Shown piece by piece: positions 2,842-58,312 of a DNA stretch of 64,000 nt (its first letter is position 1; each line of letters begins with the position of its first letter). A program made the translations under genes and the position numbers. Origin of the DNA: Escherichia phage vB_EcoM-RPN226. The stretch lies in sequence record OL770073.2; one strand, 5' to 3'. Below the pieces are notes generated by a model. That model made no database searches and was not told where the DNA came from. It was given only the letters and a program-made list of their open reading frames with translations.

Positions 2842-2868
2842 TGCGCTTTCCTTTTGGTTTATATGATT

Positions 2869-2876
2869 TATTTATA
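2869..2876 (-). promoter_or_regulatory. late promoter (TATAAATA) for gene 24
   Basis: TATTTATA on plus strand 28 nt upstream of gene 24 start; second copy at 2899-2906. Confidence 0.6.
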
Positions 2877-2915
2877 CTTTTCACGTGATGTGATAAAATA
2901 TTTATAGGAGGATTT

Positions 2916-4427
2916 ATGTCTATTGATATTTATAAAGATAAAAATGGCAAGCTGAACAAGAACTGGAAAATGATACACGCTAAACACCCTGAAATCATTG
3001 ATAGTATTGAGTTGCCATATGATGACCCTAAAACAAAAATCGTTTTAGCGATAAACGGAATGACAGAACTTAGCCGCTGTAAAAACTGTGGTGTTGAGAT
3101 GGATATCTCGAAGCTTGGCTCAGATTATTGCTCTAGAAAGTGTTCAGCTAACTCATCTGAAGTTAAGAGGAAAAAGCTTGATAGCATTAATCTTGAAGAA
3201 CGCGGCAAAAAAATTTCTGAATCTCTTAAAGGTAAATCCACTGCAAAATCTTGGAATACTCGTAAGAAAAAGTATGGTGAAAAAGGATTTAGCCAAACTG
3301 GGATAGAAGCTATCAAAAATAACGGAGTTAATTCTAGCGAAAAACGAATTAATACAATGATTACCCGTTATGGAGTTAAAAACCCGTTTCAACTGGAAAG
3401 CGTGATTGAAACTATATCCAAGGTTCAAACAGAGAATAACACCGCACGAAACCATTTACCCGGTTGGCTGTATGATAAGAATAAATTTAAACAAGTTTAT
3501 TCTAAATCTGGAATTAGAGGAATAATCAAAAAATCTGGCTGCGGTGCAAATTTAGCATATGTTTTATCACGTGAATATCAGCTCCGAGATATGAAAACTA
3601 CTTCGGCCGAAACAGAGATTCTGAGTTTTATTAATGAACTCGGGTTTGAAGCAGAGAAGACGCGCCAAGTGATAGCACCTTTTGAGCTGGATATCTATGT
3701 CCCAGAGAAGAAGCTTGCTATTGAGTTCAACGGTCTTTACTGGCACAGTTCAGGCTCAAAGGAACAGGACATTATTAAGAATAACCATCTCAAAAAGACT
3801 GAGATGTGTGAAGCACAAGGAATTCATCTGCTGCATATCTTCGAGAATGAATGGGTAGATGATACTAAACGCGAGATATGGAAATCGGTTATTAGAAATA
3901 AACTTGGTAAATCTGAACGCATCTATGCGCGTAAATGTAAGGTACATCCGGTTGATTCTAGAGCTGCTAAAGAGTTTTGTGAGTATAACCATTTACAGGG
4001 TCATGTCCCATTCCAGAATGCCCTGGGTTTATTCTATAACGATGAATTAGTACAGTTGGTCACATTTGGCAGAGGCCGCTATCAAGGTAAAACCGAATTA
4101 CTTCGTATGTGCACAAAACGTGGATACAGCGTAGTAGGTGGTGCTTCAAAACTTCTCAAGGATAAGAAATTTATTTCTTATGCTAACCGTAGATGGTCTA
4201 TGGGTAATGTGTATCAACAGATCGGTATGAAACAGATTGGTGTTACTCCGCCGTGTGACTATTATTTTGATAAAGGCCGTCTGTATCACAGGTCAAGTTA
4301 TATGAAACACTTATTAAAAGACAAGCTCAAAGTTTTTGATGAAAATCTTAGCGCGATAGAAAACTGTTATAACAACAAAATAAGAAGAATTTGGGATTGT
4401 GGTAATATAGTTTATGAATCCCAATAA
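2916..4427 (+). CDS. putative homing-endonuclease-like protein with Vsr/PD-(D/E)xK-type nuclease core and N-terminal Cys cluster
   Basis: 503-aa ORF antisense to the late cluster between genes 23 and 24; strong RBS taggagga; CKNCG...CSRKC zinc-finger-like cluster; FELDIYVPEKKLAIEFNGLYWHS resembles Vsr/DUF559 motif; no GIY-YIG motif. Confidence 0.55.
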   Translation: MSIDIYKDKNGKLNKNWKMIHAKHPEIIDSIELPYDDPKTKIVLAINGMTELSRCKNCGVEMDISKLGSDYCSRKCSANSSEVKRKKLDSINLEERGKKISESLKGKSTAKSWNTRKKKYGEKGFSQTGIEAIKNNGVNSSEKRINTMITRYGVKNPFQLESVIETISKVQTENNTARNHLPGWLYDKNKFKQVYSKSGIRGIIKKSGCGANLAYVLSREYQLRDMKTTSAETEILSFINELGFEAEKTRQVIAPFELDIYVPEKKLAIEFNGLYWHSSGSKEQDIIKNNHLKKTEMCEAQGIHLLHIFENEWVDDTKREIWKSVIRNKLGKSERIYARKCKVHPVDSRAAKEFCEYNHLQGHVPFQNALGLFYNDELVQLVTFGRGRYQGKTELLRMCTKRGYSVVGGASKLLKDKKFISYANRRWSMGNVYQQIGMKQIGVTPPCDYYFDKGRLYHRSSYMKHLLKDKLKVFDENLSAIENCYNNKIRRIWDCGNIVYESQ

Positions 4428-4435
4428 ACGAAAAA

Positions 4436-8206: not shown

Positions 8207-8207
<1 letters not shown>
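7965..8207 (-). CDS. 67: prohead core protein gp67
   Basis: 80 aa with poly-acidic D/E-rich C-terminal tail, position between 20 and 68. Confidence 0.75.
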
Positions 8208-9832
<1,625 letters not shown>

Positions 9833-9864
9833 TTAAGCAGGATGGGGATTTCTCCCCATTCATT

Positions 9865-10356
9865 TTATTCCCAATAATCGAGAGCGAGAGTTACTTCAAA
9901 GGTTTGGATTTCATTGTTTGAATCCCAATCTAATTGAAGTTCACCCACGTTAGTAGGCCACAGACCTTTAATTTCGACTTCTTTTGTTACAGTTTTAGCG
10001 TCACGAGCATATTGGCGAACAACAGCGCTCTTTTTATACTCTGCTGGTTTTCCACCAGTAATTTCGTTCCCTTGCCCAGCAGCAATGCTTTGCCAATCAA
10101 CAAACTTCTGGCGAGCATCATGTGCCTCATCGTTCATTACTGTAACAGTCCAGTCATCGAATGTACGATCGCCTGCTACGTTAATTTTACGGTTCATGAA
10201 TCCGACTGGAATTTTTTCTACAATACCAGCTGGTAAAGCAGTGGCTTTACATTGAAACGTAAAATTTTGTCCAAGATAAGAAATTTCTACTTGGAATAAG
10301 TTAGGTCGAGCAAAATCACCAGATTCAAACGCTCGTGTTACATCATCTACAAACAT
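9865..10356 (-). CDS. 19: tail tube protein gp19
   Basis: 163 aa, length and position match T4 gp19; two TATAAATA late promoters upstream. Confidence 0.9.
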   Translation of the reverse strand: MFVDDVTRAFESGDFARPNLFQVEISYLGQNFTFQCKATALPAGIVEKIPVGFMNRKINVAGDRTFDDWTVTVMNDEAHDARQKFVDWQSIAAGQGNEITGGKPAEYKKSAVVRQYARDAKTVTKEVEIKGLWPTNVGELQLDWDSNNEIQTFEVTLALDYWE

Positions 10357-10370
10357 ATTAGCCTCTGTAG

Positions 10371-10378
10371 TATTTATA
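10371..10378 (-). promoter_or_regulatory. late promoter (TATAAATA) for gene 19
   Basis: TATTTATA 15 nt upstream of gene 19 start. Confidence 0.6.
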
Positions 10379-10429
10379 TCCCTATGTTTAACCTAGGGCA
10401 TATAGAATTAAAGAATTAAGGATATAGTG

Positions 10430-10437
10430 TATTTATA
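10430..10437 (-). promoter_or_regulatory. second late promoter (TATAAATA) upstream of gene 19
   Basis: TATTTATA immediately downstream (minus sense) of hairpin 10439-10456. Confidence 0.5.
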
Positions 10438-10438
10438 T

Positions 10439-10456
10439 GGCCTGCCGAAACAGGCC
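10439..10456 (-). terminator. hairpin after HNH gene, before gene 19 late promoters
   Basis: GGCCTG-CCGAAA-CAGGCC stem-loop; no strong U-run. Confidence 0.4.
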
Positions 10457-10463
10457 TTTAGAA

Positions 10464-11069
10464 TCATTCTAGTAAATCCCAAAGATCTACGCTATTTCTT
10501 TTTGACTTTTCTCGGTTAGATTCCCAAGTGATTATTTCTAAATTTTTTACGCTTGCTATAATTTCCGGCGGAATTAAATTATCAAATCCATATTTGATAG
10601 ATACCTTGTGATCAAGTTGGTAAGCACCTTCTACGCCGCACAATCCTATTTTATCAGCATTCGGCCATTTTGACCAAATTTTTCTTATTTTAGCTGACTT
10701 AGTTATAGAATGAACTCTACTAGCATATAATGCAAACTCTTTTCTTTTACCAGTCCATCGAGGATGTTTATCGCCTCTTTGCCATGGTCTGCTTATTCCA
10801 GATTGAACTTCCGAATTTTTAATAGCAACTTGTTTAATGCTACATTTTCTACATGCATGTGTGGGTGTTCTATTTAAAAGCTGAATGCTTCTACTAAATT
10901 TAATACCACACAAATCACATTTAGCGTCAACTATTTTATTACTATTCTTTGGCATTAATTCTATTGGAACAGATATTGTATCATGATATGATACTTTATA
11001 TCCCAGAATTGTCGACCACATTTTTGAATGATTTCTTGGTTTTATTGTAACAAACTTAGAAATAATCAC
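10464..11069 (-). CDS. HNH homing endonuclease (mob-like) inserted between genes 18 and 19
   Basis: HNH motif YQLDHKVSIKYGFDNL...NLEIITWESNREK; Cys pairs CDLCG/CRKC; longest ORF starts at 11108 inside the gene-18 terminator hairpin, so a GTG at 11067-11069 after GAGG is the more plausible start (start uncertain). Confidence 0.7.
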   Translation of the reverse strand: MIISKFVTIKPRNHSKMWSTILGYKVSYHDTISVPIELMPKNSNKIVDAKCDLCGIKFSRSIQLLNRTPTHACRKCSIKQVAIKNSEVQSGISRPWQRGDKHPRWTGKRKEFALYASRVHSITKSAKIRKIWSKWPNADKIGLCGVEGAYQLDHKVSIKYGFDNLIPPEIIASVKNLEIITWESNREKSKRNSVDLWDLLE

Positions 11070-11086
11070 TTGTTTCCTCGAGAATA

Positions 11087-11100
11087 GGGGCCGAAGCCCC
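11087..11100 (-). terminator. hairpin immediately after gene 18 stop
   Basis: minus-sense GGGGC-TTCG-GCCCC stem with UUCG tetraloop. Confidence 0.5.
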
Positions 11101-11108
11101 ACAATCAA

Positions 11109-13088
11109 TTAACCTGCAAGACCAGTTAACTCATCGAAATCTGCACCAGTAGCAGTTGCGACGAAATTAAGTTGGATATAATTTATACTACGAGCCGGTT
11201 GAATGTAGAATGTTGCAACAAACTCATTTCTATCAATTACTGACGGAGTGTTATTTGTTGTATCGCAAACTACACGATATTCATAAATTCCACCGAGAGC
11301 TTTAATTCCCTGCAAGTACTGGGAAGTTTCTGTGCGGAACGATGAACGAGTAAACGCGTTGTTTAATTCGAACAAACGATATTTTGAACTACGTCCGATA
11401 TTCGTTTTTAACATATTAAACAGACGACGAACGTTAATACGATCAAATGGAGAAGGAACAGAAGTAGCTGTTTTATCACCATACAATACGTAACCATCAC
11501 CACCTGTACCGGTTACCGGGTTGATAGCTTCTTGATATAAACGGTCGCGCTGCGCCTGGCGAGTTTCAATAGCAAGTTTAATAACGTTAAGAATCTGGCC
11601 ACGATTATAACCAGCTGGAGACATCCAAGTCTGAGAAACGTTATCAGTTCTTGCACACAAACCAGCAATATCAGCTGCTAATGGAACCCAACGATTCACA
11701 TCATTATATTTGTCATACTGATACTTGTAGTTACCATCGATTGCTGCATAGGTTGAACTGATATTAAAGTTGTTATCAGTGTATGAACCTGCTGCAGTTC
11801 TCCAATTGACTAAGTTATCAACAGCACGAGTTACAGGAATTCCAACTACAGTTTCACGCGGTGGTGAGCACAGTACTAAGCAATCTTGGCGAGCATCACC
11901 AATTGAAACGACGTGTTTTTGGACAGTAGATGCTGTTTCTAAAGATTCGCCGGCGCAAGAACCCGCAATAAACAACTGAACGTCAACAGATTCACGGTCA
12001 GCAAAGAAGTCCCAAGCTTCCATCAAATCTCCTGCTGTCACTTCAGCATTTGATGATAATCCACCAGACAGAGTTAAAATTCCAGAGAAGCCTTCTGGCC
12101 AGTTTTGCGCAGTTGCAAAAATATATTCTGAACCACCTTTTGCGAAAAAGTCATCAATATAGATGTTACTATCGTAAATATCTTTTTCACCACGCTTTGT
12201 TGAAAGAACAACGCTTTGAACAATAGCATCATTGCGACGAACTATAATAGCGTATTGTGAATCAGTTTGTGGTCCATATCCAAACACTGCCTTGGCAGTA
12301 GATGCGCGGGTTCCGCCGCCTGGATAAATTGGAAGTAATGCAGAAGCCCCTTTTGCGTAGTCAGCTTTAGATACGATTTCAATTTCGATTTTATCGCCCA
12401 ACTCGCCTGGATAAAGAGCTACTACTCCTGGAATTCCATATTTTTCGAGATTTGCTTGAAAGTCAACAGCTGTCATAGCAGCTTCGGCATTTTCAATTTC
12501 AGCTAATAAAATACCAGAATCAGTAATAATTTTTCCAAGAGTTATTACTGCAGCTAAACCAGAGGAAGACGAAGAAATTTCCGCGGTCCAGTTAGAACCT
12601 AATGCTGGATATTCGCCTACTTCTTTCGCTTTAGCGATAATTTTTGCGGTAGGAATATTAATTTTCTTAATTTTTCCATCAGCATCTACTTCGGTAACTT
12701 TACATTCTGTTTCAATGTCTTCTGAAACATACTTAACCGTGATTTTATCTCCAACCGCGTAGTTACTACCTGGGGTAGAAATAGTGTATTCAATATTACC
12801 GGCAATCGGAGATGAGTTTTTAGCGGTATCTCTATCGACAGCACGCACAACTCGCAAATCATTTCCGTATTGTAAGAAATTCATTGCAGACATAAAATAG
12901 TCAGCAGTTTCAGCTGTAGGTTGACCAAAAGTATTAACTAAATCTACTTCGTTTGTAACCTGTTTAATTTGAAAAGCAGGACCCCACTGGAATTTACCGG
13001 CCAAAGCTGCTGTACCAGTAGAGTTATTAACCACGGTGCTTTGAACCGTAGTTTCTTTGAGCTCAATGCCCGGAGATAATAAAGTCAT
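11109..13088 (-). CDS. 18: tail sheath protein gp18
   Basis: 659 aa, matches T4 gp18 length and order. Confidence 0.95.
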   Translation of the reverse strand: MTLLSPGIELKETTVQSTVVNNSTGTAALAGKFQWGPAFQIKQVTNEVDLVNTFGQPTAETADYFMSAMNFLQYGNDLRVVRAVDRDTAKNSSPIAGNIEYTISTPGSNYAVGDKITVKYVSEDIETECKVTEVDADGKIKKINIPTAKIIAKAKEVGEYPALGSNWTAEISSSSSGLAAVITLGKIITDSGILLAEIENAEAAMTAVDFQANLEKYGIPGVVALYPGELGDKIEIEIVSKADYAKGASALLPIYPGGGTRASTAKAVFGYGPQTDSQYAIIVRRNDAIVQSVVLSTKRGEKDIYDSNIYIDDFFAKGGSEYIFATAQNWPEGFSGILTLSGGLSSNAEVTAGDLMEAWDFFADRESVDVQLFIAGSCAGESLETASTVQKHVVSIGDARQDCLVLCSPPRETVVGIPVTRAVDNLVNWRTAAGSYTDNNFNISSTYAAIDGNYKYQYDKYNDVNRWVPLAADIAGLCARTDNVSQTWMSPAGYNRGQILNVIKLAIETRQAQRDRLYQEAINPVTGTGGDGYVLYGDKTATSVPSPFDRINVRRLFNMLKTNIGRSSKYRLFELNNAFTRSSFRTETSQYLQGIKALGGIYEYRVVCDTTNNTPSVIDRNEFVATFYIQPARSINYIQLNFVATATGADFDELTGLAG

Positions 13089-13116
13089 TTTTAATCCTCT
13101 TTAATATGCTTTAATA

Positions 13117-16257
<3,141 letters not shown>

Positions 16258-16298: not shown

Positions 16299-18809
<2,511 letters not shown>

Positions 18810-31332: not shown

Positions 31333-31626
31333 CTATTTAATGAATACTTTAGATGATGCCTGAGCCACAGTATCACCGCATGATATTGGATCAGCCATTT
31401 GAACAGCTTTCTTTCCAGTGACATATACCTTAGAAGTTCTAGGTTGTGTCACTCCGCCATGTGTTTCATATGGCTTTTTAATTTCTGTATGTTCTGTAAT
31501 TGGATCACCTGCTACGAGAACAGCAATTCCTCCAGTGAATACTTTACTTTGTGTAGCATTCACAACCGTTGGAGGCCATGCTTCATGGCCGGCAGTAACA
31601 CACTTATCATAACTTAATCCTGACAT
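31333..31626 (-). CDS. 5.4: PAAR-repeat tail spike tip protein gp5.4
   Basis: 97 aa, small beta-rich protein with Cys/His pairs, position between 5.1 and 6. Confidence 0.8.
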
Positions 31627-32163
31627 TTATGGCCTCTCATACACGTAGCTTCTCAATTTATTAGCCCAACGACTCCAATTTCCAACTATAGTTTTTGTAT
31701 AATTTTTAACAAGAGTTTTTCTTATTGGAGCTGGAGGATTCGTTGGTTCAGTAGTATCAGAAGATGACCTAGAATTACTGCCAGAACCTCCAGATTCACC
31801 TTGTTCTTGATAGTCATATATTAATGTTACTTCGTAAGTGAATGTCTTCTGGAGGTTTTGAGGAGCTTTCCATAGATATAACTGAGTATTAGAATCAGTT
31901 GGAAGGTCTTCCCATGAAGCAGCAGTTTTAAATTCATTATCTAAACGATATTTCAACACATCATTTCCAAATCCAAACACAGATTCATACGTTCCATATA
32001 AACGATTTTCTTCTACTAAAATCCCAGGAGTTTCTTCGTAACTAGTTATATTTATAGATACTAACGTTTCACCTGTTTCTAATTGAGCGGTAAAGGTGAC
32101 GTCGATAGAAGAACCTTCCATGGATTCTCCTAAATCAGCGCTCATTGGAAGTATATTAGCCAA
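31627..32163 (-). CDS. 5.1: hypothetical protein (T4 5.1-like position)
   Basis: 178 aa, position between gene 5 region and 5.4. Confidence 0.55.
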
Positions 32164-33022
32164 TTGTTGAATTCTCTAATGATGTAAATTTATAATCACA
32201 TTTTTTCAACGCTTTTAAAATTGCGTTATAACTTACATCCGGGAGGTCGTGTTCAATTGCTTTTTCTCTAAACCATTTGTATTTCTGTGGATGTGGTTTT
32301 CCCAAATCCTCCCAAAGTTTTTTGACTTTTTCTATACTAATCCAAGGTTCAACTGATCTTAGTTTTTTATTTCTAGCATCTAATCTCGATTTTCTTATCA
32401 AAGGATCATTCCATGATTGTTTCGTTCCTTCTATTTTTCCTGGATGATTGATTAATTTGTTTCTATATTCATCAGATTTCCATAAAGATTTAACGGTATT
32501 AGAAATACGAATTTTTAATGTTGGATCATTTTCAAAAGCAGTTTTCATCGCATTACTCATTTTCTTTCGATATTCTGGCGATGCGCATCTTTCTTTGTTT
32601 ATTTTAGATATTTTCTCTGAAAATTCTTTAGTTGACGTTGATTTAGCTAATGCCTTCAATTGAGCTTTCCTATATTCAGGATTAGACCACATTCTCTTCA
32701 AATCTTCGGATGAAAAACCATCACCGCCGGATTTTATATTGGTACATAGAATATCAGATGATTTATATTTCGAAATCCAATATCTTTCTCTTGAATTGAG
32801 GATTTCATAAGTAGAAACAAATTCAATTATTTCAAAATCTATTTTATAACCAGGTTTATTACGTATCTTTTTAATATAATCACCGGAACCTCTATACTTA
32901 TCATTTTCTAAATCAAAATATCTAGATTCATGTTTACCAATATAAACCCGTACTAATCCTTTCGGATTAGTAACGGTTGTTTTATATATGTATCTAAATT
33001 GAACTGTGTTAGATTTTTTCAT
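32156..33022 (-). CDS. segC: GIY-YIG homing endonuclease (segC-like) between genes 5 and 5.1
   Basis: N-terminal GIY-YIG motifs FRYIYKTTV...VRVYIGKH...RERYWISKYKS; basic C-terminal DNA-binding region; late promoter overlapping gene 5 stop. Confidence 0.75.
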   Translation of the reverse strand: MKKSNTVQFRYIYKTTVTNPKGLVRVYIGKHESRYFDLENDKYRGSGDYIKKIRNKPGYKIDFEIIEFVSTYEILNSRERYWISKYKSSDILCTNIKSGGDGFSSEDLKRMWSNPEYRKAQLKALAKSTSTKEFSEKISKINKERCASPEYRKKMSNAMKTAFENDPTLKIRISNTVKSLWKSDEYRNKLINHPGKIEGTKQSWNDPLIRKSRLDARNKKLRSVEPWISIEKVKKLWEDLGKPHPQKYKWFREKAIEHDLPDVSYNAILKALKKCDYKFTSLENSTIG

Positions 33023-47060: not shown

Positions 47061-47237
47061 TAAGGCCTATACTTAGGCCTATTTACATTCAAATAACATG
47101 GGAACAACCTGGACCTCATGATTCTATGAGGGATTCCCGCCAACCTGTAATAAGGTCGAGCCCAAGTGCGGTAATGGGTAAATACAGAAATGGACAATTC
47201 ACGCGCCATGGAATGGCCCAAATTTAGAGAGAATAAA

Positions 47238-53681: not shown

Positions 53682-53882
53682 ATGCTGACACACGAACAGT
53701 TTGAAAAAATCATTAAATTAGCACGTGATGTTGAAATAGATTCATATCAATTAGCAGTTGAGCATTGTGAAGGATATTCATATGAAGGTATAGCAGCAGC
53801 TAAAAGAGATTTGGATGAATCTAAAGCTAAGTTAGTTCAATATCTTGAAATGATTAGGTGGAATAATGAAAACTGTAGTTAA
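53682..53882 (+). CDS. hypothetical protein
   Basis: 66-aa ORF, similar helical composition to previous small ORF. Confidence 0.4.
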   Translation: MLTHEQFEKIIKLARDVEIDSYQLAVEHCEGYSYEGIAAAKRDLDESKAKLVQYLEMIRWNNENCS

Positions 53883-56423: not shown

Positions 56424-56951
56424 ATGAATGCTAAAGATATTTTCAACTTGGTAAATTACAACGATGGTAAATTTAAATCTGAAGCACAAAGCAAGTTCTT
56501 TAATGACATCTCAATCGGAGGTGAAATCACAGTTGATGGAGGACAAATTTACAAATCCCGTTGGAATTGGATCGTTATTATTGATGAGATTGGTATTGTC
56601 GAAATTTACAAAAATACGAATAAAAATCGTACATTACACTGGTCTCGTGATACTAACGAACAGTACAAAAAGGATAAAGCATCTAAATTATCTCGTGTAA
56701 CTCAAGAAGATATTGAGTTCATCAAGAAAGATATTTTAATGTATGATAACTTAATTGCTGAAGAGCAAGCTGTTATTGATAAATTTGATGAGATTAAAGC
56801 TTCTCGTGAAATTCCTGATTTTATGAAAGAATCAGTAAATGAACGATACACTCTCATTTCAGAGCGTATTGAAACTTACAAAAAGCAAAGAGCTGAACGC
56901 CAAAATACTCTTCGGAAGTTTGAAGAACGGTTAAAGACGGTACTCGCATAA
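56424..56951 (+). CDS. hypothetical protein with C-terminal coiled coil
   Basis: start ATG 56424 after GGAGGAA, downstream of early promoter. Confidence 0.45.
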   Translation: MNAKDIFNLVNYNDGKFKSEAQSKFFNDISIGGEITVDGGQIYKSRWNWIVIIDEIGIVEIYKNTNKNRTLHWSRDTNEQYKKDKASKLSRVTQEDIEFIKKDILMYDNLIAEEQAVIDKFDEIKASREIPDFMKESVNERYTLISERIETYKKQRAERQNTLRKFEERLKTVLA

Positions 56952-57006
56952 CCGCTTTATACCAAGGATGGTATAATGGTTCTAAGCCCTTTTAATTGAG
57001 ATTATT

Positions 57007-57414
57007 ATGAAACAGTTGATAATTAAAAGATTGAATTTATTGATATGTTGTTTATGTGTAGTAGTTGCATACGGTTATTACGCAATTAATGATTATATGC
57101 ATTATAAAGATTATGATGTTACTGTAGTTAATACCATTACAGGAACACAAGGAAAAGGGTCTAGTTTATCGTTTATTGCCGTATATGAACTTAAAGACGG
57201 TTATAGATTTAGTGAATATATTTCCCCAGAGATGTATTCTTCAATAGAAAAAGGTGATAATATTACTGTAAGTTTACGTCCTTTCGACGTAAAACAGACA
57301 CTGTTTGATAATATTGTTTGGTTCTTTGGGATGGTATTAGTTCAATCCGTGTGTGGCGCTTATGTAGTCTGTTCAATCATATTCTGTGTATTTAGTAAAA
57401 TTGAAATTGAGTGA
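57007..57414 (+). CDS. membrane protein
   Basis: N-terminal and C-terminal hydrophobic helices. Confidence 0.4.
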   Translation: MKQLIIKRLNLLICCLCVVVAYGYYAINDYMHYKDYDVTVVNTITGTQGKGSSLSFIAVYELKDGYRFSEYISPEMYSSIEKGDNITVSLRPFDVKQTLFDNIVWFFGMVLVQSVCGAYVVCSIIFCVFSKIEIE

Positions 57415-57421
57415 GGAAAAT

Positions 57422-58312
57422 ATGTCAGTAGTAATTAATAATGTTAATGCAGTAATTAAATCTTTAGTTAATAAAAAAATGATGAATGAATGGACTGTAT
57501 TTCGCCGTGGAGAGCCAGATAAATTTTTTCATAGATTTAACTCAACTCTGAATTTGAATGTTATTGACAGAGATGTTCATGCCGAAATTTTAGATAAGTT
57601 TAAAGTTGATATTGGATTTGGATTAGAAAAACATCTACAGCGAACAAATGGGTCTGGAATGAGTTTATCTAATCGCATTATGAAAGCCCTTAATAAAATT
57701 GGAGCATTGTCTCGTATTAACGCGAGTGAAATCCTTCGTAATTACAATAAAGGATATGACCTTTATGGTCGACTAATGCCGAAGTTATCATTTGACCAAA
57801 TGATTGCGGATTTGTGGGAAAATCAACGCCGATTATTAGCATTAGGCGCTCGATTAGCTAAAGGTCTAGATAAACAAATGATTTTTAAGACCAATAATAC
57901 AGAAGACCTTAAATGCTTTAAATTTAGTATTCGTGGCGATGATTATTACATCAGAGCCCACTCTACAGATTATGTTAATATGGGGCATCATCTCTGTTTA
58001 GCTTTTGAAGTTTTAAAAGAAGCTGGAACACTAGAATATTCATCTGGTGCTAAATGCCCTATTGGTTCAAGTTGTATTTTAATTTATCGACCGGATGAAT
58101 CCAGTTCAACTAAATTGCCTACAAAACCTGTGCTAGTTCGTAGTAACGAAAAACATTCTGAACAAATTGATTATTTTAATAAGCAGATTGAAGAGCTGAA
58201 TATTTCTATTCAACAATATGATGATGAAATTTTCAGACTATCTGAATTGAGTAGTAAAGCTAAATCTGAGCGTGAAAAGTTAATTAAAATTGTTGATTTA
58301 CTTAAATCTTAA
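57422..58312 (+). CDS. hypothetical protein with C-terminal coiled coil
   Basis: start MSVVINN after GAGTGAGGAAAA; C-terminal heptad segment. Confidence 0.45.
   Translation: MSVVINNVNAVIKSLVNKKMMNEWTVFRRGEPDKFFHRFNSTLNLNVIDRDVHAEILDKFKVDIGFGLEKHLQRTNGSGMSLSNRIMKALNKIGALSRINASEILRNYNKGYDLYGRLMPKLSFDQMIADLWENQRRLLALGARLAKGLDKQMIFKTNNTEDLKCFKFSIRGDDYYIRAHSTDYVNMGHHLCLAFEVLKEAGTLEYSSGAKCPIGSSCILIYRPDESSSTKLPTKPVLVRSNEKHSEQIDYFNKQIEELNISIQQYDDEIFRLSELSSKAKSEREKLIKIVDLLKS

Follow-up and report, generated by a model that had tools for sequence, protein, structure and literature searches.

ORF19.1, a putative free-standing HNH-type homing endonuclease gene at the tail sheath/tail tube junction of T4-like phages

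Work on free-standing homing endonucleases takes the T-even phages as its reference system. The general properties of those of T4, MobA-E (HNH) and SegA-G (GIY-YIG), have been described (PMC2988022, PMC2790892): each is encoded by an optional gene that occupies an intergenic gap flanked by conserved genes, is found sporadically in close relatives, combines a DNA-binding part with a catalytic cartridge, and is accompanied by variation clustered in a neighboring conserved gene. The gene analyzed here, ORF19.1 (open reading frame 19.1) of Escherichia phage vB_EcoM-RPN226, resembles them in each of these respects. It lies between gene 18, encoding the tail sheath, and gene 19, encoding the tail tube, in a 64,000-nucleotide (nt) stretch of sequence record OL770073.2, hereafter the window. 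The same gene was deposited from phage T6 in 1994 as ORF19.1; the two products are 98% identical over 201 residues, and the genes share the 18/19 site and the proposed GTG start. Nothing material differs between them, and the 1994 record, whose source we take to be the paper of Repoila et al. (1994) in EMBO J, gives no function.

We read ORF19.1 as a putative free-standing HNH-type (His-Me finger) homing endonuclease gene of the gene 18/19 intergenic region, belonging to a family specialized in the sheath/tube junction, and estimate the probability of this reading at about two in three (0.68). A first-pass annotation, made by a model from the letters of the window, had noticed an HNH endonuclease gene between the sheath and tube genes; that observation is confirmed and the interpretation built on it is supported, with the nuclease role standing as a prediction. 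The genes of this Tequatrovirus (T4/T6-like) late region lie on the minus strand, with coordinates falling from gene 18 through ORF19.1 and gene 19 to gene 20:

11109-13088, minus strand: gene 18, tail sheath, with five tail-sheath Pfam domains
10465-11108, minus strand: 644-nt insert, defined by a junction alignment of 23 Tequatrovirus loci and the T4 junction
10464-11108, minus strand: longest open reading frame of ORF19.1, 214 amino acids from a TTG
10464-11069, minus strand: most likely coding sequence of ORF19.1, 201 amino acids, from GTG (11069-11067) to a TGA stop (10466-10464)
9865-10356, minus strand: gene 19, tail tube (PF06841)
8207-9793, minus strand: gene 20, portal

In T4 (NC_000866), the end of gene 18 (100515) and the start of gene 19 (100632) enclose a 116-nt intergenic region with no annotated feature; annotation and junction sequence both bear out the direct 18/19 junction that the first-pass annotation had supposed for T4. 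The junction alignment comprises the window, 16 GenBank records, and six IMG/VR contigs; a gp19-based scan of IMG/VR yielded only 15 loci, and GenBank loci were used instead. Across the 23 loci the length of the 18/19 intergenic region falls into three classes, 116 nt (13 loci), 751-754 nt (6), and 763-764 nt (4). The 8 nt GCACCGTA (plus strand) that separate the gene-18 stop from a shared hairpin in empty-site phages are swapped for the 644 nt of the insert, whose boundaries are exact and whose flanks are otherwise collinear; neither a target-site duplication nor terminal repeats were found in this alignment. All 13 empty loci have the same junction sequence, which the insert destroys. Over its first 25 kb, the window is best matched in the phage collection described below by Escherichia phage CJY920 (97.5% over 94%).

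The distribution of the gene was searched in a phage collection of 50,697 records, and two alleles were found at the site. The T6-type allele, traced by its allele-specific middle, is present in 69 records, all at 95% identity or more and with one copy each, including T6, PST, PP01, and ECML-134. The RB3-type allele, first noticed in RB7 as an unannotated intact open reading frame, occupies the same site in 48 records, RB3, RB6, RB9, pSs-1, and HP3 among them. The empty T4-type junction is covered to at least 80% in 533 records, approximately 380 of which are at Tequatrovirus-level identity (at least 90% flank identity), and approximately 150 are from genera further removed, for example the RB69 group. 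Close relatives are therefore not uniformly carriers: with approximately 380 empty, 69 bearing the T6-type and 48 the RB3-type allele, the occupied share is about 23%, and about 77%, T4 among them, lack the gene. Presence/absence polymorphism at one fixed site among close relatives, the behavior of a free-standing homing gene, is thus what the comparison of junctions reveals, as the first-pass annotation had anticipated. One RB3-type record stands out by its label: MG010123, a 32-kb record named 'Staphylococcus phage SAJK-IND', carries the allele at 9098-9712 and looks like a mislabelled T4-like contig, because its score and identity equal those of Shigella phage pSs-1.

This distribution bears on one alternative directly. 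The order 17 (terminase), 18, ORF19.1, 19, 20 (portal) would suit a packaging-associated HNH protein of the HK97 gp74 kind, acting with terminase and portal. We consider such a role very improbable: T4 and most Tequatroviruses package their DNA without ORF19.1, genomes more than 95% identical differ in whether they carry it, and its absence from T4 and about 77% of Tequatrovirus-level records is not what is seen for a required terminase partner of the gp74 type. T4-type packaging, moreover, proceeds by the headful and needs no cos-cutting helper.

The two alleles share their ends and differ in between. The first ~75 nt, comprising a hairpin, the Shine-Dalgarno sequence, and the first ten codons, are common to both at approximately 95% identity, as are the last ~230 nt at approximately 90%; the ~390-nt middle, which includes the region encoding a zinc ribbon, is unalignable as DNA, in spite of more than 95% identity in the flanking genes 18 and 19. 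The RB3-type allele (RB3, RB6, RB7, RB9, pSs-1, HP3, and others) therefore matches the T6-type in site, hairpin, Shine-Dalgarno sequence, GTG, and first ~10 and last ~75 codons, but encodes 205 amino acids with an overall protein identity of approximately 50% and is associated with a different haplotype of a polymorphic tract in gene 18. An unalignable middle between nearly identical flanking genes points to horizontal exchange rather than local divergence, and from these sequences the two alleles are best described as a mosaic produced by exchange between diverged family members. Polymorphic codons are synonymous in 22 cases and amino-acid-changing in 6 among six T6-type sequences, and 17 and 9, respectively, among four RB3-type sequences, a pattern of purifying selection that indicates a maintained gene, not a decaying one.

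The protein was analyzed for the basis of the HNH assignment. The HNH-like motif reported by the first-pass annotation (...YQLDHKVSIKYGFDNLIPPEIIASVKNLEIITWESNREK...) is present, and two regions can be distinguished in the sequence:

10506-10622, minus strand: His-Me finger core (HNH-like, 'HNN'), residues 150-188, YQLDH ... NLEIITWESNREK, with the H154 codon at 10608-10610
10842-10919, minus strand: N-terminal four-cysteine zinc ribbon (C51, C54, C73, C76), a proposed DNA-binding module

In an alignment of 45 family members, C54, Y115, G145, Q151, D153, H154, S157, G161, N176, L177, W182, N185, R186, and K188 are invariant, and conservation is at least 90% at C51, C73, and C76. With D153, H154, N176, L177, W182, N185, R186, and K188 all among the invariant residues, a chance occurrence of the motif can be dismissed. 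An HNH-type active site is expected to place an Asp/His pair acting as general base at the end of a first strand, a structural Asn at the start of a second, and a metal-binding His or Asn in the helix that follows, with spacings of approximately 14-25 and 8-10 residues; D153-H154, N176, and N185 are separated by 22 and 9 residues. The cysteine pairs that the first-pass annotation had linked to the motif are real (C51/C54 and C73/C76), but they form a separate N-terminal zinc ribbon and do not flank the HNH motif; in that region, sub-threshold treble-clef matches to DUF4379 were obtained for 17 of the 45 family members and to Zn_ribbon_8 for 7.

AlphaFold modeled the protein confidently: the full-length form with a mean predicted local distance difference test (pLDDT) score of 89 and a predicted template modeling (pTM) score of 0.49, that is, as two domains of uncertain mutual orientation, and the C-terminal domain alone with a pLDDT of 89 and a pTM of 0.76. 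In the model, D153-H154 lie at the end of a strand (150-154), N176-L177 at the start of the next (177-181), and N185 in a helix (182-188). The best structural matches to the predicted C-terminal domain are small HNH nicking endonucleases, Gme HNH (PDB 4h9d) and GVE2 HNH (PDB 5h0o), whose strand-strand-helix metal-finger core the ORF19.1 model may share. A Foldseek search of the PDB returned nothing significant, a profile search of PDB sequences gave zinc-finger noise only, and the Pfam scans otherwise yielded sub-threshold zinc-finger matches and a spurious Prim-Pol match; in PHROG, ORF19.1 weakly matches a 'homing endonuclease' family (7e-4). It is from the motif and the predicted fold that the HNH assignment draws its support.

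The relatives of ORF19.1 extend far beyond the Tequatroviruses. Word-index and exhaustive hidden Markov model searches recovered 47 clusters of full-length relatives, all of them named 'hypothetical' and none with a precomputed Pfam domain; nothing further came from a second word-index search, made with the C-terminal domain. The family profile matches 6473 representative proteins at E <= 1e-3 and 1755 at E <= 1e-10, many of which share only the C-terminal ~100 residues. Ten longer relatives were scanned with Pfam for a bridge to a named nuclease family and gave DUF7487 and weak matches only; the cluster names of ten relatives are all unnamed or 'hypothetical'. These numbers weigh on the possibility that ORF19.1 has lost catalysis and survives as a relic, or serves purely as a DNA-binding protein, its HNN motif no longer cutting and the gene persisting by linkage or through a regulatory role. 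The deviant last position of the motif invites that view, which we nevertheless think quite unlikely: no substitution was seen at D153, H154, N176, or N185 in 45 clusters reaching down to 29% identity, the domain recurs in 6473 representative proteins, and in the ten occupied loci examined every reading frame is intact and the variation mostly synonymous. Asn is also found at the last position of the motif in active HNH enzymes such as I-HmuI.

The genomic context of the family was determined from 80 IMG/VR loci fetched with the family profile, 33 of which match over essentially their full length. In 32 of these 33 a sheath-gene homologue lies immediately upstream, the exception being cut by the contig end, and in 30 the tube gene lies downstream, even where the sheath is only 37-50% identical to that of this phage. 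The same sheath/tube placement is found in Gaprivervirus RZ ('gp19.1'), Aeromonas phage AS-zj, and Acinetobacter phages. Two loci depart from it in part. In the distant, non-Straboviridae Sinorhizobium phage phiM7, a homologue (3001-3573) directly follows the sheath gene and is itself followed by a gene for a 'NosD-like domain' protein, not the tube gene; in IMGVR_UViG_3300009563_000455, a family member (3231-3695) lies between the sheath and tube genes on the opposite strand, an orientation seen in none of the other full-length relatives examined.

Where the match is confined to the C-terminal domain, the gene neighborhood is mostly unrelated. Four such proteins were scanned; three gave only sub-threshold matches in their N-terminal parts, either helix-turn-helix-like (sigma-70 region 4, resolvase, and Sleeping Beauty) or to DUF723, and the fourth gave none. 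The gene of one of these four adjoins that of a DnaB-like helicase. A C-terminal domain joined to different putative DNA-binding heads beside conserved genes matches the pattern described for phage homing endonucleases, in which a catalytic cartridge is combined with varied DNA-binding heads beside conserved genes (PMC2988022). A wider proposition, possible but on balance doubtful, is that the ORF19.1 family would constitute a distinct His-Me finger clade lacking a curated model (HNN, no CxxC in the catalytic domain, 6473 proteins), whose full-length form would accompany the 3' end of the sheath gene throughout the T4 superfamily, in phiM7 as well and in phages with as little as 37% sheath identity, and would be retargeted by swaps of the zinc-ribbon middle; the two Tequatrovirus alleles and their matching gene-18 haplotypes would then represent live co-evolution of endonuclease and target.

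The purifying selection on ORF19.1 and its very long tie to a single locus throughout the T4 superfamily can also be read in another way. A purely selfish element is expected to decay, which makes so long a tie unusual, and the two observations may be signs of an active nuclease kept for another purpose, such as excluding competing phages or acting on the DNA of the host or of parasites, in the manner of domesticated homing endonuclease genes. Homing enzymes do contribute to phage-phage exclusion, according to Petrov et al. (PMC2993671). We regard this explanation as unlikely: about 77% of close relatives, T4 included, manage without the gene, and a PADLOC scan of ORF19.1 matched no defence family. 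For the T4 Seg and Mob proteins, exclusion and homing are two faces of one activity, and the explanation is not cleanly separable from that of a homing endonuclease.

If ORF19.1 is a homing endonuclease, traces of its activity may be sought in the flanking genes, and in the 23 aligned loci one tract attracts attention:

11157-11202, minus strand: hot spot of polymorphism ~16-30 codons before the gene-18 stop, within the final ~100 nt of the gene; candidate target or co-conversion tract

Nucleotide diversity (pi) peaks at 0.17-0.18 here (window 11149-11209), compared with a mean of 0.037 over the last 1000 nt of gene 18 and approximately 0 in the next 100 nt. The hot spot lies 50-90 nt inside gene 18; most of its changes are synonymous, and one is a Thr/Gln difference. 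One haplotype is common to all six T6-type carriers and another to all four RB3-type carriers, while several occur among the empty genomes; privately fixed sites were identified at 11190 in the T6-type and 11172 in the RB3-type carriers. Nothing comparable was found on the gene-19 side or in the 108 shared intergenic bases of the same loci. Two readings suit this pattern: the enzyme would cut within gene 18, where changes in the carriers would protect them, or a short co-conversion tract would have come along with the gene. Just as simply, the enzyme may recognize the empty junction itself, which has one sequence in the 13 empty loci and is lost on insertion.

Several observations count against the assignment of ORF19.1 as an HNH homing endonuclease. 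None of the curated HNH models sought (PF01844, PF13391, PF13392, PF13395, PF14279, and NCBIfam) is matched by ORF19.1 in Pfam or NCBIfam at E <= 0.1, and a Pfam scan of the 45 family members gave a single weak HNH_4 match (0.078), leaving 44 of 45 without an HNH match. The motif ends in Asn instead of His, and the CxxC zinc pairs usual in such domains are missing from the catalytic domain. The near-universal placement after the sheath gene could also reflect old vertical inheritance with repeated loss. The hot spot is derived from 23 genomes with statistics that ignore phylogeny; given the small sample and the disregard of kinship, it is a lead and not a result. The searchable literature on ORF19.1, gp19.1, and the 18/19 junction contains no functional study and no cleavage, target, or homing data. 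Membership of the T4 Mob family was likewise considered and rejected, because hhalign revealed no relation to T4 MobE (probability 0.1%) or to the product of a MobD-like open reading frame of the window at 17071-17883 (0.2%). Both of those proteins do match Pfam HNH models; MobE matches PF01844, in contrast with ORF19.1, which has no Pfam HNH match, and the HNH domain of the Mob proteins is N-terminal, whereas the predicted catalytic domain of ORF19.1 is C-terminal.

To define how the gene might be expressed, the following signals were located around it:

11087-11100, minus strand: insert-specific hairpin GGGGC-UUCG-GCCCC, 8 nt after the gene-18 stop
11074-11079, minus strand: Shine-Dalgarno sequence GAGGAA, 4 nt upstream of the GTG (GAGGAAACAAGTG)
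10439-10456, minus strand: downstream hairpin GGCCUGU-UUCG-GCAGGCC, outside the insert and common to T4 and all empty-site phages (z = -2.4)
10430-10437, minus strand: T4 late-promoter motif of gene 19 (TATAAATA); another copy lies at 10371-10378, and both are downstream of ORF19.1 and common to T4
13117-13124, minus strand: late-promoter motif upstream of gene 18, the sole TATAAATA upstream of ORF19.1

The longest reading frame begins at a TTG directly after the gene-18 stop and reads through the hairpin; it does not start inside the hairpin, as had been supposed. The accompanying proposal of an internal GTG or ATG start fared better. The arrangement of GAGGAA and GTG and an intact reading frame are kept in all ten occupied loci examined (201 amino acids for the T6-type, 205 for the RB3-type), the PHROG 5104 profile begins at the GTG residue, and the 1994 T6 annotation proposes the same start ('likely begin by GTG'). 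Hairpins do stand on both sides of the insert, but their designation as terminators is an assumption, since neither is followed by a T-run and neither was called by a terminator scan. The stem of the insert-specific hairpin is predicted to be extended by pairing of UUGA with UCGA at the edge of the Shine-Dalgarno sequence. The folding energy of the 96-nt leader is no better than that of shuffled sequences (z = -0.56), and for that reason no claim of Shine-Dalgarno sequestration or translational control is made. Both flanking hairpins have UUCG tetraloops, and the insert carries its own copy of a kind of hairpin that already follows gene 18 in T4.

The minus strand between 10438 and 13116 contains no TATAAATA, middle (MotA-type) promoters not having been searched for; the lack of a late-promoter motif of its own argues for late read-through transcription of ORF19.1 from the gene-18 promoter. 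In phage fPS-90, a late promoter is annotated at the place equivalent to the motif at 10430-10437. Sigma-70-like promoter matches are no commoner than in shuffled sequence, and an Rfam scan of 9500-13300 gave nothing relevant.

Taken as a homing endonuclease gene, ORF19.1 would be transcribed late by read-through from the gene-18 late promoter, past the UUCG hairpin, and translated from the GTG behind the GAGGAA Shine-Dalgarno sequence. The 201-amino acid product would bind DNA through its N-terminal zinc-ribbon region and nick or cut it with the C-terminal D-H...N...N center. In a mixed infection, it would cut a co-infecting T-even genome without the gene, in either the final ~100 nt of gene 18 or the empty junction. 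Through recombinational repair templated by the carrier, the recipient would then acquire the gene together with a short flanking stretch.

Since the 1994 deposit, the gene has been named in GenBank mostly as 'hypothetical protein'. 'HNH endonuclease' appears in one close Tequatrovirus record (Ptacy1496), and distant homologues are also called 'HNH endonuclease' or 'homing endonuclease'. The wrong names 'putative head morphogenesis protein', 'holin', and 'type II restriction endonuclease' occur among MT968995 (WL-3), AP018814 / NC_054907 (T6), MW883059, OP168898, and PQ657792. In WL-3 the gene is covered by two features, 'putative head morphogenesis protein' and a hypothetical protein; the 59-amino acid WL-3 protein with the former name matches its C-terminal part. 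Neither the review of T4 mobile elements nor that of T4-like genomes (PMC2988022, PMC2993671) mentions anything at the 18/19 junction. Petrov et al. (PMC2993671) score one 'other HNH' for T6 and none for RB3; ORF19.1 is probably not counted in their list, because RB3 bears the sister allele.

The gene itself has been known since 1994; what deserves follow-up is the mosaicism of its alleles, the hot spot in gene 18, and the size of a protein family for which no curated model exists. If active, ORF19.1 would represent an uncharacterized nuclease family and provide a new site of localized marker exclusion, in the tail genes, for T2/T4/T6 genetics, as well as a natural pair of alleles with swapped putative DNA-binding regions in which to study retargeting; a proper profile would be justified for a large family now called 'hypothetical' or, wrongly, holin or head morphogenesis protein. 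If inactive, it would be merely a well-known optional open reading frame.

Other segments of the window also differ from T4. The T4 segC and 5.3 genes are absent from their T4 position (31625-31630). No counterpart of the T4 denV and ipII segment (T4 64938-65817) is present at 47077-47100, and tblastn found no denV anywhere in the window; at 53856-53875 there is no counterpart of the segment from mobD to mobD.2a (T4 56455-58156). Between genes 23 and 24, a different 1.6-kb segment (2853-4432) replaces the T4 segD region and contains an open reading frame at 2916-4427 (plus strand) whose 503-amino acid product has a sub-threshold match to REase_MTES_1575 (5e-6). An insert of approximately 900 nt relative to T4 lies between genes 5 and 5.1 (32156-33022, minus strand); in BLAST, its 288-amino acid product weakly resembles T4 SegB (1e-4) and the C-terminus of MobD (7e-5). 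The MobD-like open reading frame at 17071-17883 (minus strand, 270 amino acids) lies exactly between genes 13 and 14, where the T4 junction is direct (94551/94549); with Pfam matches to HNH_4 and HNH and 47% identity to the N-terminal 117 residues of T4 MobD, it is probably another free-standing HNH homing endonuclease gene.
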